DNA of 64,000 nucleotides from Cyanidioschyzon merolae (GCA_000091205.1 AP006494.2); one strand, 5' to 3'. Positions 11,722 through 64,000 are shown, counted from the first letter of the stretch. Translations and numbers: made by a program. Notes: generated by a model from the letters alone, not told the origin.

Positions 11722-12816
11722 TCAACTCGTAACCAGCTCCAGCGGCTTGCACATGAGCAAGTGTTCCCGTTCCCCAGTTCGCTTCTTCCACAGTTGAGCG
11801 ATCTCTCGTTCTTGAACGGGTCGGAAGCCAAAGGTTTCGTAAAGTCTCACCCCTGCAACATTATGACGTTCGACATGGAGATACATGGCTTCGCAATATC
11901 TCCTCTGCGTCCATCGTTCGATTTCCCAGAGAACGAAGCGCCCGAGTCCGCGACGTCGGAACCCCGGCGCAATCGCCAGACCCGAGATGTAAACCGAGCC
12001 GGGCTTCCTGGTCTCCTCCAGAGCCTCTCCAGCCGTGCTCTCTTTGGCGACACGTCGTGTCTTCGTCCGATCCGCCGAGAGCAAAAACGGGAACAGGTAG
12101 CCGGGGCCAAACCAGAGTCCATCATCCTCGCATGGGTTTGGATACTCGGTCACATCCGCAGTACCGATGATTCCCTTCGCTGGCAGATCTGCGCCTGCAT
12201 CCGTCCAGGCGTTAGGATCCCGAGGTACCAGGACAAATGTGTGGTTGCGGCCGGGGTTGATCTCCAGCCGACTGCGCATACAGTTGTAGAGTTCTTCCTT
12301 GCGCCGAGCGAAAAACCATGGATCTGCAGCATACGGTGAAAAAACAAGCGTTCGTAACTCAGCAACCGCGGCAAGCTCCTTCCAGCCGTCATGGCGAAGC
12401 ACTTGCCGGAAGAGCACCGACTGGGGCGGTACCCCGCGAGCGCATTTGCTGTTATTCGCGGACTCGGTTGCCGTTGCGCCACCATGCTCGCCGGTGCCGG
12501 CCCCAGTGCCGGCACCTTGGCGCTCCGAGGATAGCGACACCACAAGCGCACCGCGTTCGCCACTGTCTGGGTCCAGGTGCCACAAGAGGGCGTTCCGTTG
12601 CAGACCCCGTCGTGGAGGACACGAAATATTCCGGTTCTGTGGACACGAGCGTCGAATCGTTTGCACCGACTGACACACCCCGGAAGCAGACAGGCGCTGG
12701 TGACTCGTGATGAAGAGCCTCGTAGCTTGCTGCACGAAAGACAACGATAAATGCAGTGCCATTGATACAGGGGCTGCCACCATCTCCCGAGAACTCGACA
12801 TCAACCGCGCGCACAA
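11722..12816 (-). CDS. GNAT-family N-acetyltransferase (C-terminal acetyl-CoA binding domain); N-terminal boundary uncertain
   Basis: C-terminal region has the GNAT motif A ISGLAIAPGFRRRGLGRFVLWEIERW...MYLHVERHNVAGVRLYETFGFRPV (Q/RxxGxG/A acetyl-CoA loop). Confidence 0.6.
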   Translation of the reverse strand: MCARLMSSSREMVAAPVSMALHLSLSFVQQATRLFITSHQRLSASGVCQSVQTIRRSCPQNRNISCPPRRGLQRNALLWHLDPDSGERGALVVSLSSERQGAGTGAGTGEHGGATATESANNSKCARGVPPQSVLFRQVLRHDGWKELAAVAELRTLVFSPYAADPWFFARRKEELYNCMRSRLEINPGRNHTFVLVPRDPNAWTDAGADLPAKGIIGTADVTEYPNPCEDDGLWFGPGYLFPFLLSADRTKTRRVAKESTAGEALEETRKPGSVYISGLAIAPGFRRRGLGRFVLWEIERWTQRRYCEAMYLHVERHNVAGVRLYETFGFRPVQEREIAQLWKKRTGEREHLLMCKPLELVTS

Positions 12817-15620: not shown

Positions 15621-18509
15621 ACGGACCGCACGGGGCGCGATACCCACCGCGACTGCAGTCCATGGCAGCAGCGCCGCTTCAGGCAGCTTCCCGGATCATG
15701 TTGGCAGAATGGCTTGCAATATTGGGCAAAAGCGCTGCTCATGAGTACGGGCTCGTTTCTGTTACGGATGGTGTGAAAGAAGATTTCCCTGGTACTGTTG
15801 ATGATCATCAGTTGGTGCCAAAAAAGGCGCAGACGCATGGTTGAAAGGGCAAAAAGCTTCAAATTTGTTGACCCAGGCAGAAAGCGCATCTCTTCGAATG
15901 CGTCCATGGATGCATGAGGCGTGCCTGCCATTTTTTGGCTGCACAACAAAGCGATTGAGGTGTGACATATTTGGGTATAGAGATCGTTGGCGTTGATTGC
16001 GGAAGCACCTCTTGCATGATTTCGTGGCTAGGAGAGACGCGTATACAGAATGCAGCCGCCAATGTTCTTTCTGCATGGGCTGGGACCGTTTACACGAATA
16101 TCGCAATCCCCGAATGTACATGGATTATCGGCTTTGGGGAGTGGGTCGACCGCTCCGCTCCAGATCCCCAACGTCCCAATGGCTACCGCCTAGTCTAGCC
16201 TCCATGAGTTATGGTTGGTTCATCGAGTTCTAGGGGTATCGAGCATTCTGTGACTGTCTCTAAAGCGAGCACGAACGCAGCACGGTATCGCCTCGTGCCT
16301 GTGGGCGCCGGCTCGAGGCGTCGTTCGCCCGAAGCAGGATCGATTCTCGTCATCAGTTTGTGCTCCGATTGGTTGCGTATGCAGACCTGCCTTCGCTGCT
16401 GGTCACCCTGGAGAAACTCCGCAGAACAGACGAATCCTGGGGTACCGAGTCTCCCGGCTGCGTGCGTGTACAGAATGTGTCGTCATTTCGTGACTTCGGC
16501 CTTGGCTCGAAATCCACCAGTTTGGAGGCGCGCGAAACGTTGCAGTTGCGTGCTCTTGCGGACGCCCCGGCCTGGAAAGCAGCCTCCAAAGTACTGCTTG
16601 ACATGGGCGTCGGCGCGAACGACAACTTGTGCGGTTTATCGCGCCAGCATGCAACGTGCCCCTAGCAGATACATCCCTACAGATCTCTTGATTGCCATCT
16701 CTAGGCTAAGAAAGACGTGCCTCACGAATGCGCTCACATTATGAGCATAGAATGCGCGGGAAGATGCGAGCAGATACGCGTGTATCGAGTGCACTGCTCG
16801 CCAAGCATGCGACTTGCACGACGTGCATAGCCGCCTCTGCACTGAGCACCTACGTGTTTGCGACGCTGGATATATGCACGAGATGCTTGACCCTGACAGA
16901 GATCAACGTTCACTTTACTTGCCGCCACAGCGATCCCGTGAACCTATTCGATGTTGCAGCGCGTATTGAGCTGACGTTCACCGTAGTTCAATGAAGGATA
17001 TATGCTCTGCACCAATATCTGCTTTTGAAACGGATCGTATGGTCGCACTTTGAATGAACACTTTGAACGATCTACCAGTTGACCCAGAAATAACATCTAG
17101 CGGTACTTGCTTGACGAGGTGCATCAAAGCGAGGGAAGCGAGGCGAGCCTTCCGCGATAAATATGCTACGCGATCCGCTTTGGCGTCCTGCATCTTTCGA
17201 TGCTACGGATGACAGCAATGCGTCTATTGATCGGTGAGCGTAAAACGACGTTTGACAATCGCAAAGACGCCTTCGTCTGGATTTAATCATCGCAAATAGG
17301 CCAGCGCCGAGAGCAGCTCGACACCAAGCCCAGAGGCGCACTCCTCGCCCGGATTTGAGTCATCGAAAACGACGTTGTCATCGCGCAGGACCGGAGAGGC
17401 ATTCGAGAACGAGAAGCCGTGAAGTTCCTCAAAAAGGACGAGGTGTCGAGCAATCCAGTCCGTTTCGCAGCTTGTACTCGACATCAAGACGGAATCGCCA
17501 TTTGGCAGATGTCGTCGGAATGCTCGTGCGTCTGCACAGTGTGAACATGGGTGATAAGCAGTACCTCTTCGAGTACCCATGTATATGTCGATCATTGTTT
17601 CCGCATAAAGTCCCATCGAGTGAGATGAACGTCCGCATCTCGCGTAACGAGCGATCACATCTGCGTCGTCGTTGTGCAGTGCATTGTTCAAGGCGGGAGC
17701 GTTCCCCATACAGGAGCGCTGATTTCTCTGTCCATAGGTGTCTCTTCCATACCGATTGTGTCAAAAGTACGGAACCTTGTCATTTTGTGGCATCCTGGCC
17801 GGTATTTCTGATAGAATGTATAGAGTGGGCTTGATTGATGAGGCGGGAGTGGCGTAGAAAAAGTCTTACAGGTTCTGATTCACTTGCAGAATGTCTCGTG
17901 TAGGCTTCAAGAGACGGTTGGCTCATGCGGATCCTGCTTCTGCAAGGACATTGGTGCAGAAGCAGGATCGTTTCTCGCATACTTGCATTGATGGCATAAA
18001 GTGTGTACGCGACCTTTTCCCAATCCACGGGACACATTCTTTTTCCTGAATACTTTCGAGAGAAGCGCGCAAGAACGAAGCGACAAGCTGGTGCAGGTGC
18101 TCAAGAATTCCCTGTTGCCATGATGACGCTCATTGCTGGGGGTGCAAGGACCACTGCGCGGCTAGCTCTTGTCCACAGGCGGTGTTCTATTCCCAGGAGA
18201 TACCTTTCCTGGCTGCAAATGGCCCTGTTCAAAACACAGCTGTTATGAACTAAACAAACACGAGGTTGTCACTGGCGATGTCTGACTGCGCGACGCGCGG
18301 CTCCCTGAACGCGTAGCCCGCCGAGGTACCTCTGGTCGAACGTGGCATAGCGACAGTACTCAGGGCTGCGGGTGCCGATCAAACTCCGTACATCGGAGTG
18401 GCGACTGAAGACCCTCTGAAGAGTACGACTACGCGGCGTTGCGCACGAGATTCGCGAGCTTTTTCAGCTGCCGTTCTTCGGTGGAAACCCCCGTGAGCGA
18501 CACCCGCTT

Positions 18510-37869: not shown

Positions 37870-37882
37870 CACCTTGACACTA

Positions 37883-40312
37883 CAGTAGTGGCGAGAAGCC
37901 CGCCCTAGACAAGGCGCCGCCAACTAACGTGCAGACGCCTCGCAGTTTTTTTGGACCGGCCATCGACTACTGCTTCCACCTTTTTCTCATATGGTTCGAC
38001 TTTAAGTGATTGTCCAACAAAGTTCCCTCTTGTCAGCTCTGGAGGTCTCGTCTCCAGCACCGCACATTTCCTTATATTGATCGCGGCGATAAAGTCTCGA
38101 TTCAAAAACTCCATACGTTTCTTGCCATCAATGGTTGTGCTAACCAATACGAGTAGCCCTCGAACTTTCGCCATCCTTTCCATTTCCTCTTCCGTCAGCG
38201 GTCCGTGCTTTGCTATATCTTCAGGGCTCCTCTAGCGCCTTTCCATCTCGACCCTTTGAAGTGTACACCCCAGTTCATGGTGTGTAAACGTCGTTCGGAA
38301 CTCATCTACAGGTATCGTAACAAAACGCCTTGTGCACTCCTTGTGCACCCTCGTCGTTGGAGCTGGTGTACACCCTTTTTGTGTCTTCCAGCGCCCTGCT
38401 CCGTACGCTACTACGAGCCTTTGAATTTCATTCTCCTGCAAGGCGCTCAACTGATTGCGAAAATTCGCGAACGCGCGCTGCCTCCCACCGTATAGATTCA
38501 TTCGCAGACGAGCCCACCGGGGCTTGGTATACTCCTCCCACAGCGCATCCCGATGCGCAATGCGAAATTCCATGAACTCCCGAAAAGCTTCAAAGTCCGC
38601 TCCGCGGCTCGTCACCTCGCTCAAAGCTTCCAGGTGCTCTTTCACTCCTGCGTTCCACGTCTCGATTTTCTTCCTCGCATTCCTTATACCGGATTCTCGA
38701 TCGTATCACGCTCTCGAGAATCTCAACAGACGCATGTCTTTCTGACGCAAGTTACCGTCAGCGCCATCTTCCGCACGCTTGGGAGCAGCGATGGCTATGA
38801 TATTCGTATTCCCAGGGTCCGCGCCAACGACAAAGTCGTTATCCTGGACTTTCTGCGTCTCAATACCCGCCTCCTTCTTTTCTTCATGCTTCGTCGCGTC
38901 AACCGTAAAGTCGTTATCCTGTACTTCCTGCGTCGCAGCACCAGCCTCCTCCTTTTCTTCATCCTTCGTGACGGGTGCAGCCGGGGACGGAACTGGACGA
39001 TCTGTCTTCAAGCGCCGATAGTGTACACATATATATGGATACTCCATCGGTTTCGATCACACCAGTGAATACCTTTTGTTTGCTGACTTTGAGACGTTTG
39101 AAATTGAAGATGTTCTTCCAATACGTCTCCCGGTTTTCGCCGGTAAACTCCTCCCTGCTAACATTGAACTCTGGACTGATCTCCCTCATGATGCCACGAA
39201 GGATTCTGGAATCGATAGTCACGAAATGTGACGTGATGTTGCACATTGGAACCACGCTGATGCGCTTACCAATTAGGACAGCCTTCCGTCTCTCCCACTC
39301 TCCATTTGTCTCTTCACTCAGCATCACCTCTGCCTTGCACTCGAGTTCTCGGTCCAGAAACACAAAATAGCGCAGGATGAGGCGATAGTATCTTTCCTGA
39401 TCTTTTTCAGCTCTGATATCTTGTCTGTTGGATTCGCCAGCCCCAGTACAGCACGATGTTCTTGTATCACCGCACGGATTACAGAGGCTTCATTCGTGCT
39501 CCTGCGCGACTTCTTCTTGTCGACGGATTCGATCTCATGTTCACGCTTGCGATGCTTCGTGATGCCATTGATAATCGACCATATCCCCTTGCGAGAGATG
39601 CCAGGGTACAGCGCAGACACGGCGCGTATCATGAATCGTTCGAGATTCATTATCGAATGGTTCCTCAGGTTCGTGAGGTACTTCATCGCCCCATAGTCTT
39701 AAATACCCCAGTCACCCTTGATTCGAATACCCTCGAAGCTGTAAAAGGGATGTTTTTCGTGGAGGGCATCTACTAGCTCATTTTTCCTCCGCGCTTCCTC
39801 TGTACCAAGCATCAGGCGACTAAGAAACGTCTTGTCGCAAAACTCGTCTGGAATCTCGACCGTTTCCATGTGCGTCACGTCTTCGTACATCTCCCTCACC
39901 AAATGCATCAGTCCTAGCGACGCATTGACAATACTCTTCGAGTACGAGTCGACACGTGTTTCGATAGCGTCTCGCAACTTTTCCTTGTAGGGATCCTTGA
40001 TATGTCCAAGAAGAAAGGTTTGCACAACCATCTCGTCGGACAGTTGTCTTTCCCGCAGCCTTCGACGTAGGGCCTCCCCCTTTCGGTCCTTCTTCTCTTC
40101 CTTTTCTTCTGGACTCGGCACTGTTTTTTGTTTTTTTCTGGCAGCCGGCGACCCTGGGCCTCCAGGATCGTCAACTTGCATTTTCATGACTTTCCTTTTT
40201 TGTTTTTTGAAAAAGGACGCCCTTTGAACGCTTCTGTTATATACTGCTAATAATCAATTGAATATTTTTACTTGAGGTTTGAAACAAAATGAACTGAAAA
40301 ACTGTACTTGTC
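37883..40312 (-). mobile_element. Copy A of a ~2.4-kb repeated element encoding a TnpB/Fanzor-like RuvC nuclease (minus orientation); its 3' end lies 14 bp upstream of the ALDH start codon
   Basis: Near-identical to copy C (53069..55497) and to the 3' 1.3 kb of copy B. 5' boundary set where similarity to copy C ends, 3' boundary where similarity to copy B ends. Confidence 0.65.
37905..40187 (-). pseudogene. TnpB/Fanzor-like nuclease gene, copy A, disrupted (TAC>TAA nonsense near 39690; 1-nt deletion in an A-run near 39330 shared with copy C; in-frame TGA and TAG shared by all copies)
   Basis: Six successive ORF segments (39699..40187, 39324..39686, 38959..39363, 38706..39047, 38232..38645, 37905..38183) that concatenate into one TnpB-like protein: NLS-like N-term, FVVGADPGNTNIIAIAAP (RuvC-I), VVAYGAGRW...PVDEFRTTFTHHELGC, NRDFIAAINI (RuvC-III-like). 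Confidence 0.6.
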
Positions 40313-42391
40313 TATAAAGTTAAAGAAAATACAACTTTTACATTAGATCTACATGCTAGAGATCAGGATCACGTTCCCCTTCAACGGCGACATGTGCGTC
40401 GTGTCTCATGCCTGCCTGATCTCCCAGGCGTGCTCACCGAGCGCGATGCAAACTAGTCGCAAACTATTTATCAAAGAACAACTATCTTAAAGCCCCACAC
40501 ATTACGTCCGCCTAAGAGGTCTAGTTTTTCCGGAGAAGCTCTGAAAGTGGGTCAACGCGGGGTGTTCGAGCGACGGCGAAGGAAGCCCACGCCAGGGACC
40601 TTTACCGCAACGAACGGAGGGGCAGAGGCAGTAGCAGCAGAGAATGATGACGAGAGTTCTGAGTAGTCATCCGCCCCTCCGGAAACAACGCTGCAGGTTC
40701 GGGCGCAATTCCTGGATCAATCCTCGGACTCGGGCTCAGTATTACCTCCTACCATGGGTGCCAACCTCAACTTTGGAAACAATCTCGGCGGATGCTTTGG
40801 AAGACGGCTGGCAGTATGTTCACTGCCGAAGCTGGAACAAACGACTTGCCCGCCCATGTGTTTTGGGAGCGGATACGTAGCCGCTGAAAGGGTGGTTCAC
40901 AGAGTATCCCCAGTGGTTGAAGGTTGCTCCACGCGTTCGGCAGCGTAACGGTTGCATTCGAATCGACCTTGACTAGAGTACTTCTGATTCTACGCTAGCG
41001 CTGCGCCAAGCACTCAGTGAACGACTGGAATGCACGAGGCGCTTGTGGCATGTGCACTCACACACCCCGTGGAGGGTGCATCTAAATCGACGACGTATCT
41101 CTCGAGTACCGCAGCACTATTCCCATTCCCGTACGCGCTACGACTCGATAGGTTTCGCATCATGGAATATTTGCGGGATAGCCTCGGAATTGAACTACGA
41201 GATATCGAATTACCAGTACAGTAAAGAGGAACTGATACAAATCGAGGACTCTGCAATAGGAAAAGAGACCCAGCGGGATACGGAGAAGGAGACACAAAGG
41301 CCTCATGATCCACCTAGATGCAAAATAACCAGAGAAAGCAGCTCAGGAAAGAGCCCGAAGAAGACGAAGAAGACCAACAAGAAGAAACAGAAGAATAGAA
41401 AGAAGAGCTCCCGAACGAGCCCATCATGAGTGATCCCCTGAAAGAGCACCCCAGCGGGAACTCAAGAAAGCTGCCGCCAAACTCAATCACCTACTCACAG
41501 CGCTGAAGATCCGAAAAGCCATGCATGCAAGCCTTTAGACCAATTGGCACGCGAGTATGTATATGGGAATCAGAAGATTGCCAGAGAACTGGGACTGCTT
41601 GCACCAGAACGCAACAGTTGCAAACCTCGGTACCTGAAACGACGTACCAAAACTCGGAATGATGAATGCCACCGACTCTATAAGATCGTCAACCGCACCG
41701 CCATACGTGCCAACGCTGGAGACAAGGAAGCGAAAGCAGCGCTACCGGCGCTACAGGCGCAACATGAGGAAGCTATCAAAAGAAAGAAGAAACGTTCCAG
41801 AGAAGACAAACGAGAGGATCGAAACCGCAAAATCGCCTCCCTGACGGAATCTATGCTAGAGAGCACCAACGAAGATGAGACCTGACGCTCCATTCGATCG
41901 AGACTGGACGCACCAGAAAAGTGCTTGGGGCTCACACCAATCGTTCATAAGGAATCGCTGAGGACGGAGAGTGCCTCAGTGAATGAGACCGGGATAGACC
42001 ACGGGACAGAGCTGCATGAAGAAGCAACTGGGCACTGCCAAGACCCAGTCCATTGGTACCAATATGCTGCAGAACTACCGCGCCTCGAACATTACCAGCA
42101 CATGAATCGTTCCAGTGCAAACTACAGATATGATGCGAAAAATATCAATCGTGAAATGAGACAGTGTCGAGCGTCAGCGCACGCAGCACTGCCGCATAGA
42201 CCCACAGCGTCTAGCGACGAGCATCGCCCCAGTCTATCGCACGCGCCGCCGCGAAGATCCGGCACCGCAGGCCGCCGACGTGGGCGTGTCTGCGGCATCG
42301 GCTAGCTTCCAAGCGCCTTCAGCAAGCGCGGCCTCTGCTCCTGTTGCCGCTGCCGCTCGTGGTAAACGTACGTTACCGCACTTTGTGGGGC

Positions 42392-46704: not shown

Positions 46705-49085
46705 CTTCTTACCTGGGGGCATGAAGAAGTGTGTTCTATTTCAAAAATAAACAAGCCAATGGAAAGCTATCGACATGCAGGTCGGGGATCCTGGAGGGCC
46801 ATCTTCGCCGGGTTCGGCGAAGAAAACGGAAAACAATACCGATCCCAGGGGAACAAGAGAAGGCGAAGAAGCACAAGCAGGAAGCCAGGCGTCAAAAGCA
46901 ACTAGAAAGACGACAACACCGCGAGATTTGAGTGAAAGCTTGTCTTCTGAGACATACCAAGGATTCGTACAAGCAAAATTCACAAGAGGCTGTCAGAATC
47001 CTTGTCGCGTCGTACTCCAGGAGGGAACATTAGGCTTCTTTAGGACTCATGCATTTGCTGAAGGAGATGTACGACAACGTGCCGCATATGGAAACAGTCG
47101 ATATTCCAGAGGAATTTTTCAACAAGACCTTTATTCGTCACCTGACGCTTGGCACAGGGGAAGCGCCGAGGAGAAATGAACTGGTGCATGCCCTCCATGA
47201 AAATCATTCCGAGTACCGCTTCAACGGTGTTCGATGCAAGGGTGACTAGGGTATGTACACCTACGAAGCGATGAAGTACCTCACGAATCTGAAGAACAGT
47301 ACGACCATGAACCTCCAACGTTTCATGATACGCGCCATCTCTGCGCTGTACCAGGGCCTCTCTCGCAGAGGGATACGGGCCATCATCGACGGCATCACGA
47401 ACGATAGTACGAGTGAACAGGAGACCGAATTCGTCAAAGAGAAGACATCACGCAGGGGAAAGAATGAAGCTTTTGTGATCGGTGCAGCTATTCAAGAGCA
47501 TCGTGAAGTCTTGGGGCTTGTCAACCCAGCAGAAATGGTATCAGATGTGAAAAAAGATGAGGAATGATGCTCTCCCCTCAACCTGTGCTATTTCGTATTC
47601 CTGAACCGAGAACTCGAACGCAAGGCGGAGACGGAGCAAAGTGAAAAAAAAGAAGAGACAGACAGACAGACGGACAGACGGAAGGCTGTGCTGCTGGAGA
47701 AGCGCTTCAACGTCGATCCGTTGTCCAACATCAAGTCATATTTTGTGACAATCGACTCCAAAATCCTTTACGGCATCATGAGGAAGATCAGTCCAGAGTT
47801 CAATGTTAGCAGGGAGGAGTTTACCGGCGAAAACCGGGAGACGTATTGGAAGAACATCTTCAATTTCAAACGTCTCAAAGTCAGCAAACAAAAGGTATTC
47901 ACTGGTGTGATCGAAACCGATGGAGTATCCATATATATGTGTACACTATCGGCGCTTGAAGACAGATCGTCCAGTTCCGTCCCCGGCTGCACCCGTCACG
48001 AAGGATGAAGAAAAGGAGGAGGCTGGTGCTGCGACGCAGGAAGTACAGGATAACGACTTTACGGTTGACGCGACGAAGCATGAAGAAAACAAAGGAGCGG
48101 ATCCTGCGATGCAGAAAGTCCAGGATAACGACTTTGTCGTTGGCGCGGACCCTGGGAATACGAATATCATAGCCATCGCTGCTCCCAAGCGTGCGGAAGA
48201 TGGCGCTGACGGTAACTTGCGTCAGAAAGACATGCGTCTGTTGAGATTCTCGAGAGCGTGATACGATCGAGAATCCGGTATAATGAATGCGAGGAAGAAA
48301 ATCGAGACGTGGAACGCAGGAGTGAAAGAGCACCTGGAAGCTTTGAGCGAGGTGACGAGCCGCGGAGCGGACTTTGAAGCTTTTCGGGAGTTCATGGAAT
48401 TTCGCATTGCGCATCGGGATGCGCTGTGGGAGGAGCATACCAAGCCCCGGTGGGCTCGTCTGCGAATGAATCTATACGGTGGGAGGCAGCGCGCGTTCGC
48501 GAATTTTCGCAATCAGTTGAGCGCCTTGCAGGAGAATGAAATTCAGAGGCTCGTAGTAGCGTACGGAGCAGGGCGCTGGAAGACACAAAAAGGGTGTACA
48601 CCAGCTCCAACGACGAGGGTGCACAAGGAGTGCACAAGGCGTTTTGTTACGATACCTGTAGATGAGTTCCGAACGACGTTTACACACCATGAACTGGGGT
48701 GTACACTTCAAAGGGTCGAGATGGAAAGGCGCTAGAGGAGCCCTGAAGATATAGCAAAGCACGGACCGCAGACGGAAGAGGAAATGGAAAGGATGGCGAA
48801 AGTTCGAGGGCTACTCGCATTGGTTAGCACAACCATTGATGGCAAGAAACGTATGGAGTTTTTGAATCGAGACTTTATCGCCGCGATCAATATAAGGAAA
48901 TGTGCGGTGCTGGAGACGAGACCTCCAGAGCTGACAAGAGGGAACTTTGTTGGACAATCACTTAAAGTCGAACCATATGAGAAAAAGGTGGAAGCAGTAG
49001 TCGATGGCCGGTCCAAAAAAACTGCGAGGCGTCTGCACGTTAGTTGGCGACGCCTTGTATAGGGCGGGCTTCTCGCCACTACTAT
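46705..49085 (+). mobile_element. Copy B of the TnpB/Fanzor-like element (plus orientation); 5' ~1 kb divergent, 3' ~1.3 kb near-identical to copies A/C
   Basis: Homology to copies A/C from the leader (caaaaataaacaag...atgcaggtcggggatcctgg) through the shared 3' tail ...gggcttctcgccactact; lacks the ~60-bp TATA-containing leader segment present in A/C. Confidence 0.6.
46775..49062 (+). pseudogene. TnpB/Fanzor-like nuclease gene, copy B, disrupted (AGA>TGA nonsense at ~47565; extra stop between segments 47049..47249 and 47253..47567; shares the conserved in-frame TGA and TAG)
   Basis: ORF segments 46775..47179, 47049..47249, 47253..47567, 47688..48008, 47920..48261, 48283..48735, 48784..49062 collinear with copy A/C segments. 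Copy B is in-frame where A/C carry the 1-nt deletion. Confidence 0.6.
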
Positions 49086-49157
49086 ACACCGCTGCCGTCG
49101 TTCGACTTAGAACGGCTTTTGGTATTGGCGGTGGTACAGCGGCCTTGCCTCGTGTTT

Positions 49158-50084
49158 ATGGCAACGAGCGTTTCGGAAAGCGAGTTGCAACTGCTTCCGC
49201 ACTGGCTTTCGTGTATCCATGCGAAGCGGTCAACCTGGACGTGTTCCCAAGACTATGCGCGGTTCGTTCGGCTCTTGCGGGATATCTCCTTGGAGCTCTA
49301 TGTGGCGCGCAACCAGCCCAACGTGCTCGTTCAACTCGCACGTTACGGTTCAGCGTGCACACGGGTTGTGAACGATCTTATCACGGTCTGGAGTGTTCCG
49401 CTTCTACACGAGAGCGTTTCCAGGGCGGTGATTCGGTTTCTAGTGGTTTGTCAGACCGGCAGCGGACCAGAGCAAGTCAAGAGGCGGGCTCTGGCCTGGG
49501 CGCGACACCTGCTGCGACTCGCTGTCTCTCCAGCGATCAACGCAACCTTTATCGATGAGGGCTTAGGTTCAGCTCGAGTTGTGGATGAACTTTGCACTGT
49601 TATCGGGGCCATGGGTTGCCAGGCGCGCATACCAGCTGAACTTGGCGTTCTGATTCCATCGCTCATTCAGGGTGCATGCTGTGCAGACCTTGTTGCTGCT
49701 CTCGTGCCGACGATTGCGGCAATGCTCGAGTCGCAAGCGACCAGTCCCGCATGGCGTCATGCCGTTCGCTGCGCATTCACCTGGGAAGATGCGGAAACGA
49801 AGTACTGTGCTTTTCGCGACGGGTTGTCGGCGACTCTGCAAAATATGCTCCTCGCGGCAGACGCGCAGCTCTTGTGCCAGTGCCTCCAGTCCCCGGAGGC
49901 ACTACTCAAAACACCGCTGGATCATCTCAGCGAGCGATTCGATCACATTCGCCTCTTCTTGCGTTTACAACATGGAGCGGATCCGGATACCAAGGCATCT
50001 GCTGACGACGTCAATACAGTCTCGACGCAGAACCAGAGCGGACCGGATCTCGCAACGACGCCTCGAGCAGGAACGATGACCTGA
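49158..50084 (+). CDS. Hypothetical protein of unknown function (start reassigned to first ATG downstream of the element end)
   Basis: ORF-track ORF 49044..50084 starts with a TTG inside the mobile-element tail; coding-like composition continues for ~310 aa after ATG 49158. No recognisable domain. Confidence 0.3.
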   Translation: MATSVSESELQLLPHWLSCIHAKRSTWTCSQDYARFVRLLRDISLELYVARNQPNVLVQLARYGSACTRVVNDLITVWSVPLLHESVSRAVIRFLVVCQTGSGPEQVKRRALAWARHLLRLAVSPAINATFIDEGLGSARVVDELCTVIGAMGCQARIPAELGVLIPSLIQGACCADLVAALVPTIAAMLESQATSPAWRHAVRCAFTWEDAETKYCAFRDGLSATLQNMLLAADAQLLCQCLQSPEALLKTPLDHLSERFDHIRLFLRLQHGADPDTKASADDVNTVSTQNQSGPDLATTPRAGTMT

Positions 50085-51026: not shown

Positions 51027-52379
51027 ATCAGTATCCAGTCGGCACAGTGACTGTGCCTCTTCACCAGTGACGGGCTCTTGACGAAAACCGAAGCACCAGG
51101 TACAGTGCTCGACCGCGCCGCTGCAGCACGCAGCGGGCCAACACTGTCAGAGAGTTTCGACGTTGACGTTCGCGCCGAGGCTCGCCAGCGCGCATGATGC
51201 ACGCTCGTCATCTGTTCATTCGTGTTTTGTATGTTTATTCATGAACATATGAAGGCAGTATCTGGTCCAGACGCGCATGGCCTACCCATGTCCGATCGAG
51301 GTCGCGAAACCTTGTTCAATGAATGAGATCGAGTGGACGAAGCCTTTAAAGCCCCAGATGCGTCGATGCTGACAGCTAGCTGGGCAGAGGCCGTCGTTCA
51401 CCTACAGATGCTTCTCCGCTCGATAAGCGAGCGATCAGTCCTCCCGTCAGACTCAGAAAATAGAGGCAGCCACTGTTGGGGTACAACGCGAACCGTGAGC
51501 TCCGTTCCGCAACGCTGGATGCACTGCCGCCGCTGACGCCATGCGGCAGGAGAACGGCTCTTCGTTGCGTTTAGAGGCGGCGCCTGAAGAGTTCGCGGTA
51601 TCTGCGTAGCGCACCGATCAAGCAGGGATCCCTTGCGTAGATCCACAGAATACAGATGTTTGATGGTGTCGGAACGGTGGATCTTAGCCAGTGCCGCCCG
51701 GAGATGTGAAGAAGGTACCTGCTCGGAGAGCGCTTCCACGATGTACTGCAGTCAGATGGATGCCTGGAATGCAAGGTTCGGAAAAATGATCGGTTTTATG
51801 AACGCAACAAAGACTCGCCAATATGAAAAATGCAATTGACTACGAATTTTCCGGTGATTTCGTGAACGCGTCCGTGTGGAATACATCCTATTCATGCTCG
51901 AGTTTGGGATGCAAACAGCAGCGGTTGGTGCATATCCAGAACGTCCACCAAGGGAATCCATCTGATCTTCCTCACTTACAGGATATACATACGGCCAGCG
52001 ATGAGGTCCATCGGATTCATACGTCTGGCTGCTTTCATCTATGCGGTGTAGACACGCTGGACAATGAAGCTTCTACTCCAAGGTGTCGCTTATGAGCCCT
52101 AGAGCCACTGCAACGAAGCTGCTCTTGTCCGGACTTGCAACCCAGCGCAACCCAATGGTCAGCGTCCACTAGAATCCGACACAGCAGCCCGTTACCCGCA
52201 GACATCAGAATGGAAGCGTCTCGCTGCAGGACGATGGGCATGCGCCGCAGTCTTGCCAATGAGCCGGATCAATCGCCGCATCCGTAGAACAAAGAACAGA
52301 GACCAACTACCAACTAGCAACGAGATAACGATTTCTTTCGCCATCTACGATAAACGTTAAAATGAGGAAAAGTTTCCTC

Positions 52380-52860
52380 GTTGGCGAAAGTTTACCTTAC
52401 AGGCGGAAGGTCCCGCGAGCTGAACGAGTGTGCCCGGCGAGTGCTTCATGCGACTCTACAGAGGCAGATGCCAAAGTAAGATATGAGCAGCAGCTCATCG
52501 TAACGCAATGCTTTCTGGGAATAGGAGCAGGACGCTGCGTCTGGGCGTCGCCCTTGTCGCAGCGGACTCCTCGTATATCGCTTCGCAGTGCCGCAGACAG
52601 TACGTCTGTCTGCGCAGCTCGCAGGCTCCCAGAATGATCATGAATCCAGACCCGGTATCGGGTGAAGCATTCCTCGAGCCGAGGCCCTCAGTGGTATAGC
52701 AAAGCCGTTCGAGCTCCATGAACTATCTGCTCCAGCGGTTCAAGCGCAAAGGTGGATGATTAGGGTAGGTACGAGGCACACACGATAGGACGTATGAAAC
52801 GACCAAAATATCCGAGAAGAAGTATAGGTAATGTAAATTGGAGGTAGGTGCTTCATCACG
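52380..52860 (+). repeat. Dispersed repeat family R1 (copy 1); related copies at 60100..60420 (+) and 58340..58640 (-, partial)
   Basis: Shared blocks gtttaccttacaggcggaaggtcccgcg..., gggtgaagca..cctcgagccga.gccct, ctatctgctccagcggtt.aag...ggatgattagg.taggtac.aggcacacacgataggacgtatgaaacgacca.aatatccgagaa...gtataggtaatgtaa read directly in both places. Confidence 0.5.
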
Positions 52861-53068
52861 GACGCTTTCCAGAAAGCCGTTATCCTTTCCGAATTCTAGG
52901 ATCCATGGTCAATGGAAACGTCTTGTCAATAAAAAAATCGCGCTCAATGGGCGCACCCCGGAGATCGGGCAGTCAACTGACGCGATGCGCGTGCCGTTGT
53001 TGAAGGGAAACTCAATTGGGATCAGTAACGTGTTGTTCAGCTGTGAACGTCGGATATCGGTCCAGGCC

Positions 53069-55497
53069 ATAGCAAAGTACAGTCTTTCAGTTCGTTTTTG
53101 TTTCAAACTTCAAACAAGTCCAGTCAAGTGTTTTTTTGCAGTATATAACAGCAGGGTTCAAAGAGCGTTCTTGTTCAAAAAAAAAGAAAGCTATCAAAAT
53201 GCAAGTCCACGATGCTGGAGGCTCAGTGTCGCCGGCTGCTAGAAGAAAACAAAAAACAGTGCCGAGTCCAGAAGAAAATGAAGAGAAGGAGGACTGAAAG
53301 GGGAGGCTCTACGTCGAAGGCGGCAAGAAAGACAACTGTACGACGAGATGGTGGTGAAAGCTGGTCTTCCTAAACATATCAAGAATCCGTACAGGGAAAA
53401 GTTGCGAGACGCTATCGAAACACGTGTCGACTCGTACTCGAAGAGTATTGTCAATGCGTCGCTAGGACTGATGCATTTGGTGAGGGAGATGTACGAAGAC
53501 GTGACGCACATGGAAACGGTCGAGATTCCAGACGAGTTTTTCGACAAGACGTTTCTTAGTCGCCTGATGCTTGGTACAGAGGAAGCGCGGAGGGAAAATG
53601 AGCTAGTAGATGCCCTCCACGAAAAACATCCCTTTTACAGCTTCGAGGGTATTCGAATCAAGGGTGACTGGGGTATTTACAGCTATGGGGCGATGAAGTA
53701 CCTCACGAACCTGAGGAACCATTCGATAATGAATCTCGAACGATTCATGATACGCGCCGTGTCTGCGCTGTACCCTGGCATCTCTCGCAAGGGGATATGG
53801 TCGATTATCAATGGCATCACGAAGCATCGCAAGCGTGAACATGAGATCGAATCCGTCGACAAGAAGAAGTCGCGCAGGAGCACGAATGAAGCCTCTGTAA
53901 TCCGTGCGGTTATACAAGAACATCGTGCTGTACTGGGGCTGGCGAATCCAACAGACATGATATCAGAGCTGAAAAAGATCAGGAAAGATACTATCGCCTC
54001 ATCCTGCGCTATTTTGTGTTTCTGGACCGAGAACTCGAGTGCAAGGCAGAGGTGATGCTGAGTGAAGAGACAAATGGAGAGTGGGAGAGACGGAAGGCTG
54101 TCCTAATTGGTAAGCGCATCAGCGTGGTTCCAATGTGCAACATCACGTCACATTTCGTGACTATCGATTCCAGAATCCTTCGTGGCATCATGAGGGAGAT
54201 CAGTCCAGAGTTCAATGTTAGCAGGGAGGAGTTTACCGGCGAAAATCGGGAGACGTATTGGAAGAACATCTTCAATTTCAAACGTCTCAAAGTCAGCAAA
54301 CAAAAGGTATTCACTGGTGTGATCGAAACCGATGGAGTATCCATATATATGTGTACACTATCGGCGCTTGAAGACAGATCGTCCAGTTCCGTCCCCGGCT
54401 GCACCCGTCACGAAGGATGAAGAAAAGGAGGAGGCTGGTGCTGCGACGCAGGAAGTACAGGATAACGACTTTACGGTTGACGCGACGAAGCATGAAGAAA
54501 AGAAGGAGGCGGGTATTGAGACGCAGAAAGTCCAGGATAACGACTTTGTCGTTGGCGCGGACCCTGGGAATACGAATATCATAGCCATCGCTGCTCCCAA
54601 GCGTGCGGAAGATGGCGCTGACGGTAACTTGCGTCAGAAAGACATGCGTCTGTTGAGATTCTCGAGAGCGTGATACGATCGAGAATCCGGTATAATGAGT
54701 GCGAGGAAGAAAATCGAGACGTGGAACGCAGGAGTGAAAGAGCACCTGGAAGCTTTGAGCGAGGTGACGAGCCGCGGAGCGGACTTTGAAGCTTTTCGAA
54801 AATTCATGAAAGTTCGCATTGCGCATTGGGATGCGCTGTGGGAGGAGTATACCAAGCCCCGGTGGGCTCGTCTGCGAATGAACCTATACGGTGGGAGGCA
54901 GCGCGCGTTCGCGAATTTTCGCAATCAGTTGAGCGCCTTGCAGGAGAATGAAATTCAGAGGCTCGTAGTAGCGTACGGAGCAGGGCGCTGGAAGACACAA
55001 AAAGGGTGTATACCAGCTCCAACGACGAGGGTGCACAAGGAGTGCACAAGGCGTTTTGTTACGATACCTGTAGATGAGTTCCGAACGACGTTTACACACC
55101 ATGAACTGGGGTGTACACTTCAAAGGGTCGAGATGGAAAGGCGCTAGAGGAGCCCTGAAGATATAGCAAAGTACAGACCGCTGACGGAAGAGGAAATGGA
55201 AAGGATGGCGAAAGTTCGAGGGCTACTCGTATTGGTTAGCACAAGCATTGATGGCAAGAAACGTATGGAGTTTTTGAATCGAGACTTTATCGCCGCGATC
55301 AATATAAGGAAATGTGCGGTGCTGGAGACGAGACCTCCAGAGCTGACAAGAGGGAACTTTGTTGGACAATCACTTAAAGTCGAACCATATGAGAAAAAGG
55401 TGGAAGCAGTAGTCGATGGCCGGTCCAAAAAACTGCGAGGCGTTTGGACAACAGATGGAGACGTTTCGCCTGGGGCGCGTTCGCCGCCTCTACTGTA
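53069..55497 (+). mobile_element. Copy C of the TnpB/Fanzor-like element (plus orientation), with divergent 3' terminal ~90 bp
   Basis: Collinear with copy A over ~2.4 kb including the TATA-containing leader gcagtatataacag. Diverges from A/B after ctgcgaggcgt (55441) but keeps a related terminal ...cgccgcctctactgta. Confidence 0.65.
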
Positions 55498-57546: not shown

Positions 57547-57879
57547 TCGCTGCAGCGCATGAATCCACAGTCGAGGTCTCGTGGCTCGCGGAGCGTGCCC
57601 TCGAAGCCGCGCACTGACGGCCGGGTCTGTCCCGTGACGCCCATCTGCGAGCGACGCAACAAGCGGACACATGTCGACGCGCAATAGCCGCAGATGCACC
57701 TGGCAATGATCCGGACACCGAATATCGCGCCCAAGCTGAACGCATCACCTGAAGCGAACTTGTTCGATGCGAAAGATGTAGCAGCCAGTTGTATGCCGGT
57801 GCTTGCGCATCCAACCATCCAGCCATCCAACCATCCAGCACAGATGCCCATTGCTGCGCTGCGATCGGCAATGCTAGGC

Positions 57880-57965
57880 GAAAAGCGCGTGCTCCGCCGA
57901 GCCTCCACGTGCGATGGCGCCTGCTGGTGGGATCTCTGGAGCAGCGCCCTGCTGCGGTGCCCTGT
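57880..57965 (+). repeat. Short dispersed repeat R2 (second copy at ~59095..59170)
   Basis: ccgc.gagcctcca.gtgcgatggcgc..gctggtgg.atctct.gagcagc shared between the two loci; gives similar peptide RRASTCDGACWWDLWSS / RGASRCDGARWWYLSSS in the ORF track. Confidence 0.4.
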
Positions 57966-58735
57966 CGTTGCCTGCTGGTTTTTTCAGATGACAAAACGTT
58001 TCCATTGACCATGGATCCCTGAAGTCGGAATGGATAATGGCTTTCGTGAAAGCGTCCATGATGAAGCGCCTTCCCTCAAGTTCCGTTACCCGTACTTCCT
58101 CTCGTCTGCACTGGTCGTTTCGTATGTTCTATCGTACGCCGAGTGCCTGTTTTGAGCACCCACCGTAGCGCTCACACCACTGAAGCAGATGCTGCACAGA
58201 GACAGAACGGCCTTGTCATGCCACTGAGAACGTCGCCTCGACGCGTAGTTCTCCGACACGGAATCGGGATTCATCTTCAATCTGGGAGACAGCAAGCTCC
58301 ACAGTCAGACCTAATGCCTGTGGCAGCGCGAAACGATAGCTAGGAGACAACCGCAACCATGACGACACCTGGATGCATTCTAACCAATTCTAGTCTCAGA
58401 ATAAACAGCGTTGCGGGCGAGTTGCTCAGGTCGCGCCACTGCACGCGCCACTGGCAGGAGCATGAAGCACGATCCTGGGAGACTCGTCTGGCCCGCGGGA
58501 CCTTCCGCCTATAAGGTAAACGTTCGACAGTACGGAAAGCTTTTCTCCCTTGTAACATGTATCTTAGGGGGGAAATAAATATTGATATACTTGCCGGTGA
58601 GTCGTGAGTCTCGTACCTTTTTTCGATATCGCGCATTCAACACGCGCACCTGGGAGGTCAGGCCGTCGCGAGACACGACACGCATGTCGCCGCTGGGGAG
58701 AAACCCGATCGTGACCAATCGTTTACTGTTTGTTC

Positions 58736-59078
58736 TACAGTACAAGTTGTGTTTGCGTTGACGTCGTAGCCGAGTATGGTGTTTCAATTCGATTATGTTT
58801 CAACGCTCATGTGAGCGTATCCAAGCGATTTTTCCCAGTTTGTATCAGAAGCGTTCAAAGGGCGTTGTTTTTCAAAAAAATAAAAAGGAAAGATATGGAG
58901 AAGCCAGTCGAGGATCCTGGGGGCGCAGCGTCGCCGGCAACCGGAAAAACAACAAACAAAAAACAGTGCCGAGTCCAGAGGAACGGAGAAGGACGTAGAA
59001 GCAAAACGGTGCGGCCCTACGTGAAATGCTGCAAGAAAGACGACATTACGACGACATGACGGTGAAAGCGTGTCTTCT
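58736..59078 (+). mobile_element. Copy D: 5'-terminal fragment (~340 bp) of the TnpB/Fanzor-like element (leader plus first ~55 codons), truncated and joined to repeat R2
   Basis: Matches copies A/C from gtacag...gttcaaagggcgtt...aaaaaggaaag.atgga.aagccagtcgaggatcctggggg through ...gacggtgaaagcgtgtcttctaaac, then diverges into R2-like sequence. Confidence 0.5.
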
Positions 59079-62000
59079 AAACTGCGATCGACAATTCTAC
59101 GCGAATCGCGCGTGATCCGCGGAGCCTCCAGGTGCGATGGCGCGCGCTGGTGGTATCTCTCGAGCAGCCTACATGGCAATGCGACTCGTTGTTGTCGTTG
59201 GATGCTCAATGCAGAGCAGAGCAACCACCGCGCTGACACTCGGACTCGAACTCCAAATACCATCGATAGAGGCGATAGCAGCAGGCTGCCGGGCACGTAT
59301 ATGGGCCAAGGGGTCCACTATGCGCACCTCTTTGAGTCGGGTTTTGGTGCAGACCCCCAACGCAGCGCAAGAAAACTTGGATGAAATCAGCGCAGATTTG
59401 GCTGAAGCGCCTATTAGACGAAAACACGCTACCCAATCGTTCCCCGGAAATATAGAATTCTCCCGTCGCCTGAAGCGAACGGGCCAAACGCCAATATGGG
59501 AACGTAGACACGGGACCAGTCGCCCCAGTAACGCCGGCTTGACTCTATCGGGAACTACAACCTAGCATACACATGCAAGTACTGGTGGCAGGCGCTGGAA
59601 TTCCCGCGACTTGCTCGAGGTACCCAATGGCTCGCCAAAATGCGCGTTGGTGGCTTCCGGCTGGCAGCACCGGCGCTAAGCCGTATGGGAACACTGGAAT
59701 CGCACTGGGAATCGCACTATCCCTGCTGCGGAGACGAAATCCCCGAGACGCTGACGTATTTAGGCTGACAGTGCCCGCGCTGGAAACAGGAGCGCAGCGA
59801 TCTCCTTGAAGGACAGCAGCAGCTGGGCATCATCGTGATAGCCGAAGGTCGGACACTCACTTTGAGTGTAGCACTGGCAACTGATGGTCCGCTAACCGAG
59901 CCTCAGCGCTCATTAATGGCGAACAAACTCACATGCTACCTTCTGGGCAAAAGGTCCTGCGAATGGGATGCGCACACGGGTTTAGTGCTCTTTGTGCCTA
60001 CCCACTGTGGTGGGTCTCAAGCACAAAACCGCATTGCCAACCAAGAACGCATTCCATGCATGATCACGAAGGAGAGAGGCGGCTCCCAGGATATATCCTA
60101 ATAGCCAAGTTTCTCCAGCGTGTCGTGCAGCGAAGACAGGCCTGCATCCGCAGACTGTCCAAGCACAAACTGACGATGAGACCCGATTCTACGTCGGGTG
60201 AAGCACCCCTCGAGCCGACGCCCTCTGGGGTATAGAAAAGCTGCTCTAGCTCGATGACCTATCTGCTCCAGCGGTTAAGTTCCCAAGGCGGATGATTAGG
60301 TTAGGTACTAGGCACACACGATAGGACGTATGAAACGACCAGAATATCCGAGAATCAGTATAGGTAATGTAATTTGGAGGTAGGGTGTTTGATGGATACT
60401 TTAGTGTGCACTGAAGAAAAACACAGAAAAAGAGAAAGAAAAGAAAACTGCGCATAATCGGCGAACGCTGCCCCATGTAATCATTTCGTCAAATGAGATA
60501 ATAACCGGTTCCGTACGAGTTCCGAGTATCGACGTCGCGATGCGGCGCGTCGATGCGTTCTGGGACGTGCGTCTGCAAACCTCCAATGCCATCATCTGGT
60601 CATCATGCTTCCCGTGTCCCAAGCATGCGCTGGGCCATCACACAACGGTTTGATCGAAAATTTCCAGAGGAGCTCGGACCCCTCGATGCGCAGTCAGCGG
60701 AGCTCCGTCGAACACGTGCCTGGCAACGTGCCTCGAGACGAGGCGAGGCGTGACCTCATCGAGTAGGAAGCCACGCGATCCTTGATGGCGTGCTGCATCT
60801 CAGCTTTGTTTCAAAGATGCTCCTCATCCATACATGGTAGCAGATACGTCTAAACGACGACCCTAGGTTTTGCTTGACGCTGCGAAAGTTTTCCTTCTTA
60901 TCCCACTGCATCATCTCTAAGCGGATTTGGTTACGTTCTTTCTCCGGTGGGTTCTGTGATTTCTCGTTTACTAGGCGAGATGGCATCGATCTGGTCCCTG
61001 TACCACATATATTTTTCTCCTCGAGATTCGGACGGATTCGGTCGACGATGGTAATGAAACTCTCCTTTTCTGTCTATTTCTTCTACGATTCCCATATACG
61101 TTTTTGGGACGGTATCCGTCCGCAGCACGCTAGGAGACCGACGTTCGTTGCATCACTCCGCCTCGCTCACGAGCAGAGCAGCAACCGAGCAATTCTGAGC
61201 TGGTGGAGCCAGCGCATGACTTGTGGAATATCGTTGTCACATACGCGACCGACATAACTATTGAACCGTGCGCGAAGCAAGAACATGAGAGAACAGAGCA
61301 GACGGCTTCGACTGGATTGAACCAAGGGAAACGGGCAGCGACGACGAACAGCTCTTCGCCGATTTCAGCTGCGCAATCCTCGACCGATTCCGAGTGATGG
61401 TAACCAACGTTATCCAGGAGCAGGACAGGAGGATGTGCGACGCACAAGCCGCGACTGCTGCATCGAAAAAGCATGACGCGTTGAACGATCACGTCCGTTT
61501 GACGATTTGCAGGCGACCACATGATGACAACGCCGCTGGTGCTGACGTTGTCGGATTGCTCGCGTGTCTGTCCTTTACGAGAAGCGCTTTGCTGTTCTTT
61601 GAGTACCCAGGTAGATATCTGCGATTTCTCTCGAATAAAATCTCATCACACGAGCCGTGCCCCCGTTCCTCGTGCAGCATGCGTTCGCGTTTCAGCACGA
61701 GCTCGATGGTGTGTGTCGATGAACGCGTACCGCACTCCCACAGAAGCGTGCCTTTCACTTTGTACATCCGAGTCGCATCATCGCAGATCGACGCAACCGT
61801 ACAAAAACGTCCCCTTTTGTGGCCTTTTCTCATCGTATTCCGTAGAGAACACTTGGAATGGAATCGATGGACCTGGAGACCGACGTGTAGATAGTTTTTG
61901 AAAAGTTGTGTTTCGAGTGCATGACGCTCAAGGTAAGGAATAAGAGAAGGATGGTTAATCAACCTGCAGACGGCAGAATCACTGAATTGTAGAGGTAATG

Positions 62001-62296: not shown

Positions 62297-63958
62297 TCAG
62301 ACTGAGGACGCCTGTGGTTGCCTGCTCGCTGTTGCCGGTTTTGACGATCCGTCGTGCTTCGGTTCGGTGCTTGCATTCGGTGATGCAGGTGGATCCACCC
62401 ATACGCCGTCTTCCTTCATTAACTTGATGAGCTCGGCAACGCCTTGGTTTTCGGGAACCGTTCGGATCTCCTCACGGCCGCGGTACAGACTGATCTTTCC
62501 GGGGGTCTTTCCGACATAGCCATAATCCGCATCGGCCATCTCGCCGGGGCCGTTCACAATGCACCCCATGACGGCTATGCTGAGTCCCGGCATGTGTTTG
62601 GTAGCATCGCGAACTTTGTGAAGAACCTCCTCGATATTAAATAGCGTGCGTCCACACGAAGGACACGCGACATACTCAACCATGGTGCGCCGAAGGCCCA
62701 GGGCCTGAAGGATTCCATAACAGACCGGAATTTCCTTGACTGGATCCTCGGTTAACGAGACTCGGATTGTATCGCCGATACCCTCGGCCAGTAGGCCACC
62801 AATGCCAATGCTGGACTTGATGCGGCCGTATTCCCCGTCGCCGGCTTCGGTTACACCTAAATGGATAGGATAGTCCATACTCTCCTGATCTAGACGCTTC
62901 GCGAGCAAACGATATGCAGCCATCATCACGGGCACTTTGCTCGCCTTCATGCTGATCACCAGGTTATGAAAGTCGAGCTCGCGGCATACACGAATGCACT
63001 CGAGCGCGCTCTCGACCATACCCTCGGGTGTGTCGCCGTACGTGAAAAGCATCCGTTCTGATAGGCTGCCATGATTCACGCCGATGCGCATTGCTTTGTC
63101 TTGCTCTCTCAGCGAGAGAATGAGTGGCTTCAGCGTCTCCTTCAGTTTCTGTGCTGCTGCCTCGAAGTCAGCACGGCTGTACTCGGTTCGATTGGGGTCA
63201 GGCTTTTCGAATACATACAAGCCAGGGTTAATGCGCACCTTATCCACGTGTTTCGCCACCTCTAATGCGATGTTCATGCCGTTATGGTGCACGTCGGCAA
63301 CCAGGGGTACATCGCGGTACGTTTCACGCAAACGTTGCTTTATGAAACCGACAGCATGCGCGTGCGCCATGGACGGAACCGTAAGCCGAACGACCTCACA
63401 GCCCGCCTCGTGCAAGCGCCTGATGGAGGCCACGCATCCCTCAATATCCAAAGTGTCCTCATTGATCATGCTCTGAACCACAACCGGGTTGCCACCGCCG
63501 ATGTACACGTCGCCGACGCGTACGGCTCGAGTCTTGCGGCGGGGAATCGAACCGGTCAAGTCAAGGTTTACGAGGCCTGACTGATCACTCAGCGCATCTT
63601 TGGGTTTCGGTATTGGCGCCGTGGGACGTGCCGGACCCACAACCTTCGCGCAGAGTGGCAAGCGCGCGCCGCGGACGCGACGTTGCTGGGCGTGTAGCGC
63701 CGCTGCTGCGCTGCGTTTCCGCGCTGCACCTGCTTCCAGCAGTGGCAAAAAACTCCCGGTTCGGCAGCTCGCACCAGACAAGAGCACCGTCGATACAAAC
63801 GCGCTTTGCGGAGCACTCATCGAACTTGAGGTTGTACAGACGAGCGTTCTACGCGGTGAATAGCGTGCGTTACACGTACGATGATCGGTAACCGTGCGCG
63901 CAAGAGTGCAGCTGGCGACGAGTGGGAAGCGCGCGCGATCCATTCGCTTGGCCAGCAC
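62297..63958 (-). CDS. ispG: 4-hydroxy-3-methylbut-2-enyl diphosphate synthase (IspG/GcpE, MEP pathway), bacterial-type core with ~140-aa Arg/Ser/Ala-rich N-terminal targeting-like extension
   Basis: Core collinear with IspG: [101 protein letters not shown] (4Fe-4S Cys triad). Confidence 0.85.
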
Positions 63959-64000
63959 CGGCAGACGTCCATATCCTTTACTTTTGTCTTATAAAGTACA

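Follow-up and report, generated by a model that had tools for sequence, protein, structure and literature searches.

The phylogeny of IspG (also known as GcpE or HDS) splits the plastid-bearing eukaryotes: red algae group with cyanobacteria and carry a type I enzyme, whereas the HDS of other plastid-bearing eukaryotes is of type II, clusters with that of Chlamydiae, and is thought to act as a monomer (PMC7912892). Among red algae, the short form has been published as the normal state (PMC7912892). The methylerythritol phosphate (MEP) pathway was found in all red algae examined, and in Cyanidioschyzon merolae, which has lost the mevalonate (MVA) pathway, the supply of isopentenyl diphosphate (IPP) has been suggested to depend on the plastid MEP pathway (PMC5164836). 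The HDS gene of this species is CML284C, and the other six MEP genes (DXS, DXR, MCT, CMK, MDS, and HDR) are listed at the loci CMF089C, CMG148C, CMH115C, CMS444C, CMT435C, and CMJ152C (PMC12649381, published in 2025). In a 64,000-nucleotide stretch of C. merolae DNA (GCA_000091205.1, AP006494.2; hereafter the window, meaning the whole stretch analysed), we identify positions 62297-63820 on the minus strand, with a probability of about 0.96, as the annotated nuclear gene for the plastid-targeted, cyanobacterial-type short IspG of C. merolae 10D. Evidence contradicting the identification as IspG was not encountered in this analysis. The gene, the short red-algal type, the Phe-type presequence, and the complete C. 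merolae MEP pathway are all already known, and the locus upholds the textbook picture in which red algae possess a cyanobacterial-type two-domain HDS with a Phe-type transit peptide for import into a primary plastid, and the green lineage and many secondary-plastid lineages a chlamydia-like three-domain one.

An open reading frame (ORF) scan of the window recovered 553 codons at 62297-63958 on the minus strand, with the frame open throughout. Read from the ATG at 63820, the product is identical over 507 of 507 residues in a protein alignment to XP_005536899.1/BAM80863.1 of C. merolae 10D, a 507-amino-acid (aa) protein encoded on an 859,119-bp contig and a member of the 90% cluster of the top match. 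The two proteins thus agree in length, start codon, and every residue, the sole difference being that the mechanical ORF of the window runs 46 codons further upstream. An earlier reading of the DNA made from the sequence alone (the first-pass annotation) had called this ORF a bacterial-type (short) IspG/GcpE, which is borne out by matches to Pfam GcpE (PF04551; positions 1-342 of the 343 in the profile, 426 bits vs. a cut-off of 32, E = 1e-127) and to the NCBIfam equivalog TIGR00612, covered at full length with 508.7 bits (cut-off 280.25). A further NCBIfam model, NF001540, scored 455.5 bits against a cut-off of 345. The models of the short form were matched in one unbroken stretch. The closest named matches in the homologue search were Cyanidiophyceae, namely Cyanidiococcus (84% identity), Cyanidium (87% over the core), and Galdieria (79%), followed by other red algae and then by cyanobacteria, with core identities of 75-80%. 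The features of the locus are as follows.

62297..63820, minus strand: IspG/HDS coding sequence of 507 aa plus the stop codon (62299-62297), single exon, annotated in C. merolae 10D
63821..63958, minus strand: 46 in-frame codons upstream (GTG 63958, ATG 63943), probably 5' leader or intergenic
63641..63820, minus strand: candidate plastid transit peptide, residues 1 to ~60, with the F motif MSAPQSAFV and no cyanobacterial counterpart
63545..63640, minus strand: red-alga-specific conserved N-terminal block, residues 61-92 (VGPARP...)
62741..63544, minus strand: domain A (TIM barrel, substrate-binding), residues 93-360, aligning with 3NOY, 2Y0F/4S38, and residues 122-388 of the long-type sequence P0266
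62720..62740, minus strand: A-B linker VKEIPVC, residues 361-367, at the site of the long-type insertion domain
62399..62719, minus strand: domain B ([4Fe-4S]), residues 368-474, with ligands C386, C389, C420, and E427
62663-62665 (C386), 62654-62656 (C389), 62561-62563 (C420), and 62540-62542 (E427), minus strand: cluster-ligand codons, checked
62300..62398, minus strand: Pro/Ser/Ala-rich low-complexity tail at the C-terminus (residues 475-507), which varies between red algae

Judged from its sequence, the protein is a type I two-domain IspG in which domains A and B are joined by a 7-aa linker. The fold can be regarded as settled on grounds of sequence identity, both to annotated IspG and to the solved structures 3NOY (E = 1e-67) and 2Y0F/4S38 (E = 1e-52), which match the 553-aa ORF over residues 137-517. 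Domain A is ~80% identical to cyanobacterial IspG. The CxxC...C...E ligands of domain B are invariant in 120 of 120 homologues and align with their equivalents in 3NOY. In domain order and in the Cys/Cys/Cys/Glu ligands, the protein resembles the solved bacterial enzymes of Aquifex aeolicus (3NOY) and Thermus thermophilus (2Y0F, 4G9P, 4S38), from which it differs by ~30 extra residues in the TIM barrel (~201-231; gapped in 3NOY, but also present in cyanobacterial and long-type IspG) and by the eukaryotic N- and C-terminal extensions.

The large insertion domain typical of plant and apicomplexan GcpE is missing, as had been stated in the first-pass annotation. Compared with P0266, a 770-aa long-type eukaryotic IspG from a EukProt transcriptome, residues 94-360 align with positions 122-388 at 51% identity and residues 368-483 with positions 645-761 at 47% identity. 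The plant-type insert is therefore absent, because ~256 aa of P0266 (389-644) are matched by 7 aa here. The NCBIfam models of the long type matched in two separate stretches only, and both remained far below their cut-offs (NF002534, 481.7 bits vs. 886; NF001912, 448.5 bits vs. 1045). The long, three-domain type II IspG of green plants, apicomplexans, Chlamydiae, Bacteroidota, and others catalyses the same reaction with the same A and B domains, and in eukaryotes it is plastid-targeted, as the protein would be here. It differs by an A* insert of ~250-270 aa between A and B, and belongs to a separate phylogenetic group, both in our neighbour-joining (NJ) tree and in the published one (PMC7912892).

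With the HDS of other red algae (Cyanidiococcus, Cyanidium, Galdieria, Porphyridium, Gracilariopsis, and Pyropia), the protein has in common the type I two-domain architecture at 73-87% identity, the Phe-type presequence, in most cases the GPARP motif that marks the red-alga-specific block, and a variable C-terminal tail, and together these sequences are monophyletic; what is not conserved among them is the actual sequence of the presequence and the tail. The cyanobacterial enzymes (Synechococcus elongatus, Gloeomargarita, and Pseudanabaena; ~405-412 aa) have the same two domains and ligands, are 75-80% identical over the core, and form the sister clade with 100% bootstrap support, but they are encoded in bacterial genomes and lack the transit peptide, the GPARP motif (0 of 71 sequences), and essentially also the tail. 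The tails of red-type sequences measure 10-35 aa, vs. none in cyanobacteria, and beyond residue 480 the alignment decays to an identity of 0.02-0.05 with a gap fraction of 0.57-0.97.

The phylogeny of the IspG core, proposed as a check in the first-pass annotation, was calculated as an NJ tree with Kimura distances from 391 well-aligned columns of 61 sequences (100 bootstraps). The protein of the window grouped with Cyanidiococcus (bootstrap 99), then with Cyanidium (100), and fell inside a clade of all red-algal sequences (100) that joined the sampled cyanobacteria (themselves monophyletic at 98) with a support of 100. The long-type eukaryotic P0266 and its partner P0247 were placed elsewhere in the tree, among long-type sequences. 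This topology reproduces that of the published HDS tree (PMC7912892). The IspG gene descends from the cyanobacterial lineage, as do all red-algal HDS genes; the HDS found in green plants, apicomplexans, and many further eukaryotes with plastids is instead the three-domain, chlamydia-like form.

How the cyanobacterial gene came to the red algae allows for a second scenario, in which the short HDS did not arrive by endosymbiotic gene transfer (EGT) but by a later horizontal gene transfer (HGT) from a cyanobacterium, replacing a chlamydia-like long HDS in the red-algal stem. The authors of the published tree list such a transfer among the explanations for the split between red algae and the others (PMC7912892), and in our NJ tree the sampled cyanobacteria as a whole (monophyletic in 98/100) form the sister group of the red-algal clade, which is not nested beside Gloeomargarita. 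Yet the same sister position to cyanobacteria is predicted equally well by direct EGT, which requires one event fewer. Furthermore, the acquisition must predate red-algal diversification because red-algal monophyly is supported at 100/100, and at that depth both scenarios are hard to separate. We therefore regard a later transfer as unlikely, though worth keeping in view; the choice between EGT and HGT leaves the identity and function of the gene unaffected.

Apart from this question, the short red-algal and cyanobacterial clade is nested among long-type IspG (560-840 aa) in the NJ tree. In the library clustered at 50%, most of the distant representatives were long-type sequences of 560-840 aa that matched the query in two stretches. 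The nearest outside relative, P0121 (681 aa, 59% identity), matched query residues 84-423 in one stretch, and therefore its extra length is placed elsewhere than in the classical A* insert. These length patterns hint that the IspG insert may have been gained or lost more than once.

In contrast to the core, the N-terminus has no cyanobacterial counterpart. Ninety-three aa precede the core anchor 'RRKTR', compared to 9-29 aa in the 70 cyanobacterial-type sequences in which the anchor was found; from this difference, the eukaryote-specific extension can be put at ~70-90 aa. The first-pass annotation had described an Arg/Ser/Ala-rich extension of ~140 aa. Its presence stands, and its composition was found to be basic and rich in Ala and Ser, but its length was overstated because the mechanical ORF begins at a GTG (63958) and not at the start codon.

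The position of this start codon determines how much of the N-terminus is translated. The ORF contains two in-frame ATGs, at 63943 (first) and at 63820 (second, codon 47), and a precursor of 548 aa (from ATG 63943) or 553 aa (from GTG 63958) would have a presequence of ~140 aa. Such a longer form agrees with the frame being open from 63958 and with the composition of the added 41 residues, which are also basic and Ser/Thr-rich and carry a Phe at position 6. In addition, a TATA-like TTTATAAG lies at ~63995-63988, and the upstream sequence is kept at 98-99% identity in four metagenome contigs from hot springs (L003-L006, over 5-9 kb), so that it is no artefact of the window; within the window, its last 144 nt (63857-64000) have no further copy. 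The start at 63820 is nevertheless favoured because of three observations. First, the reference annotation begins there and gives 507 aa. Second, two other metagenome contigs (L001 and L002) contain the gene at 99.5-99.8% nucleotide identity from window position 63856 down to 61899, yet are wholly unrelated to the window upstream of 63856, i.e. 36 nt before ATG 63820 (similarity breakpoint at 63856/63857 in the window, 2467/2468 in L001, and 2424/2425 in L002). Third, the Cyanidiococcus orthologue starts at the Met equivalent to 63820, and both proteins have the motif '...S/AFV.TV' in common; the N-terminal motif MFMNNQTCSFVPTV was similar when the window protein and Cyanidiococcus were compared. 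A further obstacle to upstream initiation is that transcripts starting upstream of 63972 would first meet the out-of-frame ATG 63972. This ATG opens a 51-codon upstream ORF (uORF; minus strand, 63817-63972), the TGA stop of which (63819-63817) overlaps the IspG ATG (63820-63818) as ATGA; unless transcripts begin upstream of that ATG at 63972, the uORF is irrelevant. Initiation at either upstream codon is thus improbable, and 63821-63958 is most likely non-coding, either 5' leader or intergenic DNA.

With translation from 63820, residues 1 to ~60 become a candidate for a rhodophyte-type plastid transit peptide, with import and cleavage predicted from the motif. These residues are poorly conserved in the alignment of 120 homologues (identity 0.02-0.04, gap fraction 0.76-0.92), and the first 59 aa comprise 9 Lys and Arg, 1 Asp or Glu, 13 Ala, and 9 Ser and Thr. 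The Phe of MSAPQSAFV is at position 8. A Phe within the first 12 residues is found in 25 of the 28 red-type homologues with a full N-terminus, and the frequency of Phe in red-type homologues is about five-fold higher at positions 2-12 (0.107) than at positions 13-50 (0.022). Two of the three exceptions have a longer N-terminus with an internal Met followed by the Phe motif (P0021, 'MQTTLFVPSA'; P0028, 'MDCAFVTGAG'), and the third (P0302) has a Trp at position 2. The first-pass annotation had proposed to look for a bipartite leader (signal plus transit peptide), which does not apply here because the plastid of C. merolae is primary; with a primary plastid, only a transit peptide is expected and no signal peptide.

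The same extension could, in principle, direct IspG to the mitochondrion or another site outside the plastid, or to two compartments, or it could have a regulatory function unrelated to targeting, given that mitochondrial import, too, typically involves presequences that are basic and poor in acidic residues. IspG, however, depends on 2-C-methyl-D-erythritol 2,4-cyclodiphosphate (MEcPP), a substrate made in the plastid, and on ferredoxin or flavodoxin in the reduced state. Moreover, the MEP pathway is located in the plastid in photosynthetic eukaryotes (PMC5164836), and the N-terminal F-based motif, which this protein shares with 25 of 28 orthologues, is a hallmark of the plastid transit peptides of red algae and glaucophytes (PMC7038456). 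Any destination or role other than plastid import is thus highly improbable.

The genomic setting is that of a eukaryotic nucleus. As had been noted in the first-pass annotation, the neighbouring genes are eukaryotic, and profile searches assigned the long ORFs to MED14, a heat shock factor (HSF)-type factor, a CCT/TCP-1 subunit, PUF/CPL, bZIP, and Brix; further long ORFs of the window encode Nramp, CLC, and an aldehyde dehydrogenase. The 507/507 identity, the eukaryotic neighbours, and the even GC content (~0.50-0.60 across the window) together show that the window comes from the nuclear genome of a photosynthetic red alga. That the gene might instead lie on a bacterial (cyanobacterial) contaminant contig or a mis-assembled bacterial fragment, as could be imagined from the 75-80% core identity to cyanobacterial IspG and the bacterial two-domain architecture, is barely credible in view of its 100% identity to the nuclear-encoded protein annotated in C. 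merolae 10D (contig of 859 kb), the flanking MED14, HSF, CCT, PUF, and bZIP genes, the even GC content, a red-algal clade with 100% bootstrap support that includes no cyanobacteria, an N-terminal extension found in eukaryotes only, and the fact that four independent metagenome contigs repeat the gene together with its flank (98-99% identity). The first-pass annotation had already argued from synteny against contamination, and the tree and the flanks agree with it.

Three points limit the assignment. The start codon at 63820 is deduced from annotation and conservation, with another in-frame ATG at 63943; the phylogeny rests on a simple NJ tree of 391 columns; and import, the cleavage site, the dimer, the electron donor, and the activity of the enzyme are all derived from homology and motif.

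On the reading as a plastid-targeted type I IspG, the 507-aa precursor would be made in the cytosol, and its basic, acidic-poor presequence of ~60 aa with the N-terminal Phe would mediate Toc/Tic import into the primary plastid, followed by cleavage. The mature enzyme would consist of the TIM barrel and the [4Fe-4S] domain with the ligands C386, C389, C420, and E427. The IspG enzymes of Aquifex and Thermus are head-to-tail dimers. By analogy with these solved bacterial enzymes, the algal protein may form a head-to-tail homodimer in which MEcPP is offered by one subunit's TIM barrel to the [4Fe-4S] cluster on its partner subunit. [quoted passage not shown] IspG is probably essential in C. merolae because the MVA pathway is lost and the IPP supply has been suggested to be MEP-dependent. 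Genes for the other steps (dxs, dxr, ispD, ispE, ispF, and ispH) were not seen among the long ORFs of the 64-kb window. The first-pass annotation had deduced a host with a plastid or plastid remnant from this gene; the 507/507 identity to C. merolae 10D shows the inference of an MEP-pathway plastid to be right, but this is a full primary plastid and not a remnant. The locus can serve as a calibration case: knowledge of the host lineage turns a seemingly odd eukaryotic enzyme of bacterial type into an ordinary one.

The red-alga-specific block, with the consensus '(M/V)(H/V)(D/-)GPARP...KD.(M/L)(S/K)DQSG', follows the transit peptide and precedes the TIM barrel. Of 51 red-type sequences, 43 contain the G-P-A-R-P motif, compared with none of the 71 cyanobacterial-type sequences. 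Cyanidioschyzon and Cyanidiococcus read 'AKVVGPARP' where most other red algae read 'MHDGPARP', and Galdieria, Rhodosorus, and Compsopogon are without the motif. The conservation of the block suggests that the mature N-terminus is near residue 60, and residues 61-92 are probably the N-terminus of the mature protein. The ~32-aa block could be more than a spacer and form a functional appendage of the mature enzyme, e.g. one that binds a partner, stabilises the dimer, or serves redox regulation.

Variability is also found upstream of the gene. Hot-spring metagenomes contain one and the same IspG gene in two unrelated upstream contexts, that of the window and L003-L006 and that of L001/L002. In the latter, the upstream region encodes a 699-aa, coiled-coil, host-like ORF, which had no significant Pfam match (one sub-threshold hit to DUF7158, E = 0.0047). 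A search of the window gave no copy of it, and the 5.9 kb upstream in L004-L006 gave no match. An insertion of a mobile element in L001/L002 was considered and rejected, given that the ORF is host-like and has neither a significant Pfam match nor a copy in these regions. The two contexts could reflect a strain rearrangement or a second locus; if true, a duplicated locus or a promoter swap might alter MEP regulation in an organism in which the MVA pathway is lost. Both propositions, the GPARP block as a functional appendage and the two contexts as a second locus or promoter swap, may so far be undescribed, but they are doubtful and deserve little confidence.

One of the contigs with the upstream context of the window, L004, extends past the end of the window and contains two further ORFs. 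At 3851-4462 (minus strand), ~1.5 kb upstream of IspG, a 203-aa ORF has a signal-peptide-like N-terminus and 'YTKQPI' / Q-K-Y-rich tandem repeats, and from these features it is perhaps a secreted or cell-surface repeat protein. Another ORF, at 107-2236, encodes 709 aa resembling a RING domain plus a helicase C domain.

The first-pass annotation had also pointed out that the IspG gene constrains the taxonomic origin of Fanzor-like elements, and the host identity indeed provides the taxonomic setting for the repeats of the window, as expected from the published Fanzor1 of C. merolae, CMe-1A, which occurs in ~150 copies of ~3 kb each (PMC3627910). Three dispersed repeat copies of ~2.4-2.6 kb were observed at 37881-40447 (plus strand), 46727-49094 (minus strand), and 52937-55497 (minus strand). 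They are mutually 87-94% identical, and a 75-bp stretch is tandemly duplicated inside them. On the minus strand, the copy at 37881-40447 contains broken-up ORFs, one of which has a RuvC-I-like 'VVGADPGNTNIIAIAAP' motif; no intact long ORF was seen in this copy. These features fit degenerate elements of the Fanzor1/CMe-1A type. Shorter and more diverged repeats (69-87% identity) are found at 52331-53375, 57859-59168, 40009-40428, and 46727-46948, and further diverged pairs match 52658-52848 to 60194-60384 and 16303-16418 to 60108-60223. The diverged repeats flank the large copies and occupy the gene-poor region immediately downstream of IspG (57.8-60.4 kb); they probably represent fragments of older transposons.

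Finally, two long ORFs of the window had no Pfam match. The first (49044-50084, plus strand, 346 aa) adjoins the repeat copy at 46727-49094. The other (11458-12339, plus strand, 293 aa) lies on the strand opposite to an overlapping GNAT acetyltransferase ORF (11722-12816) and is probably spurious.

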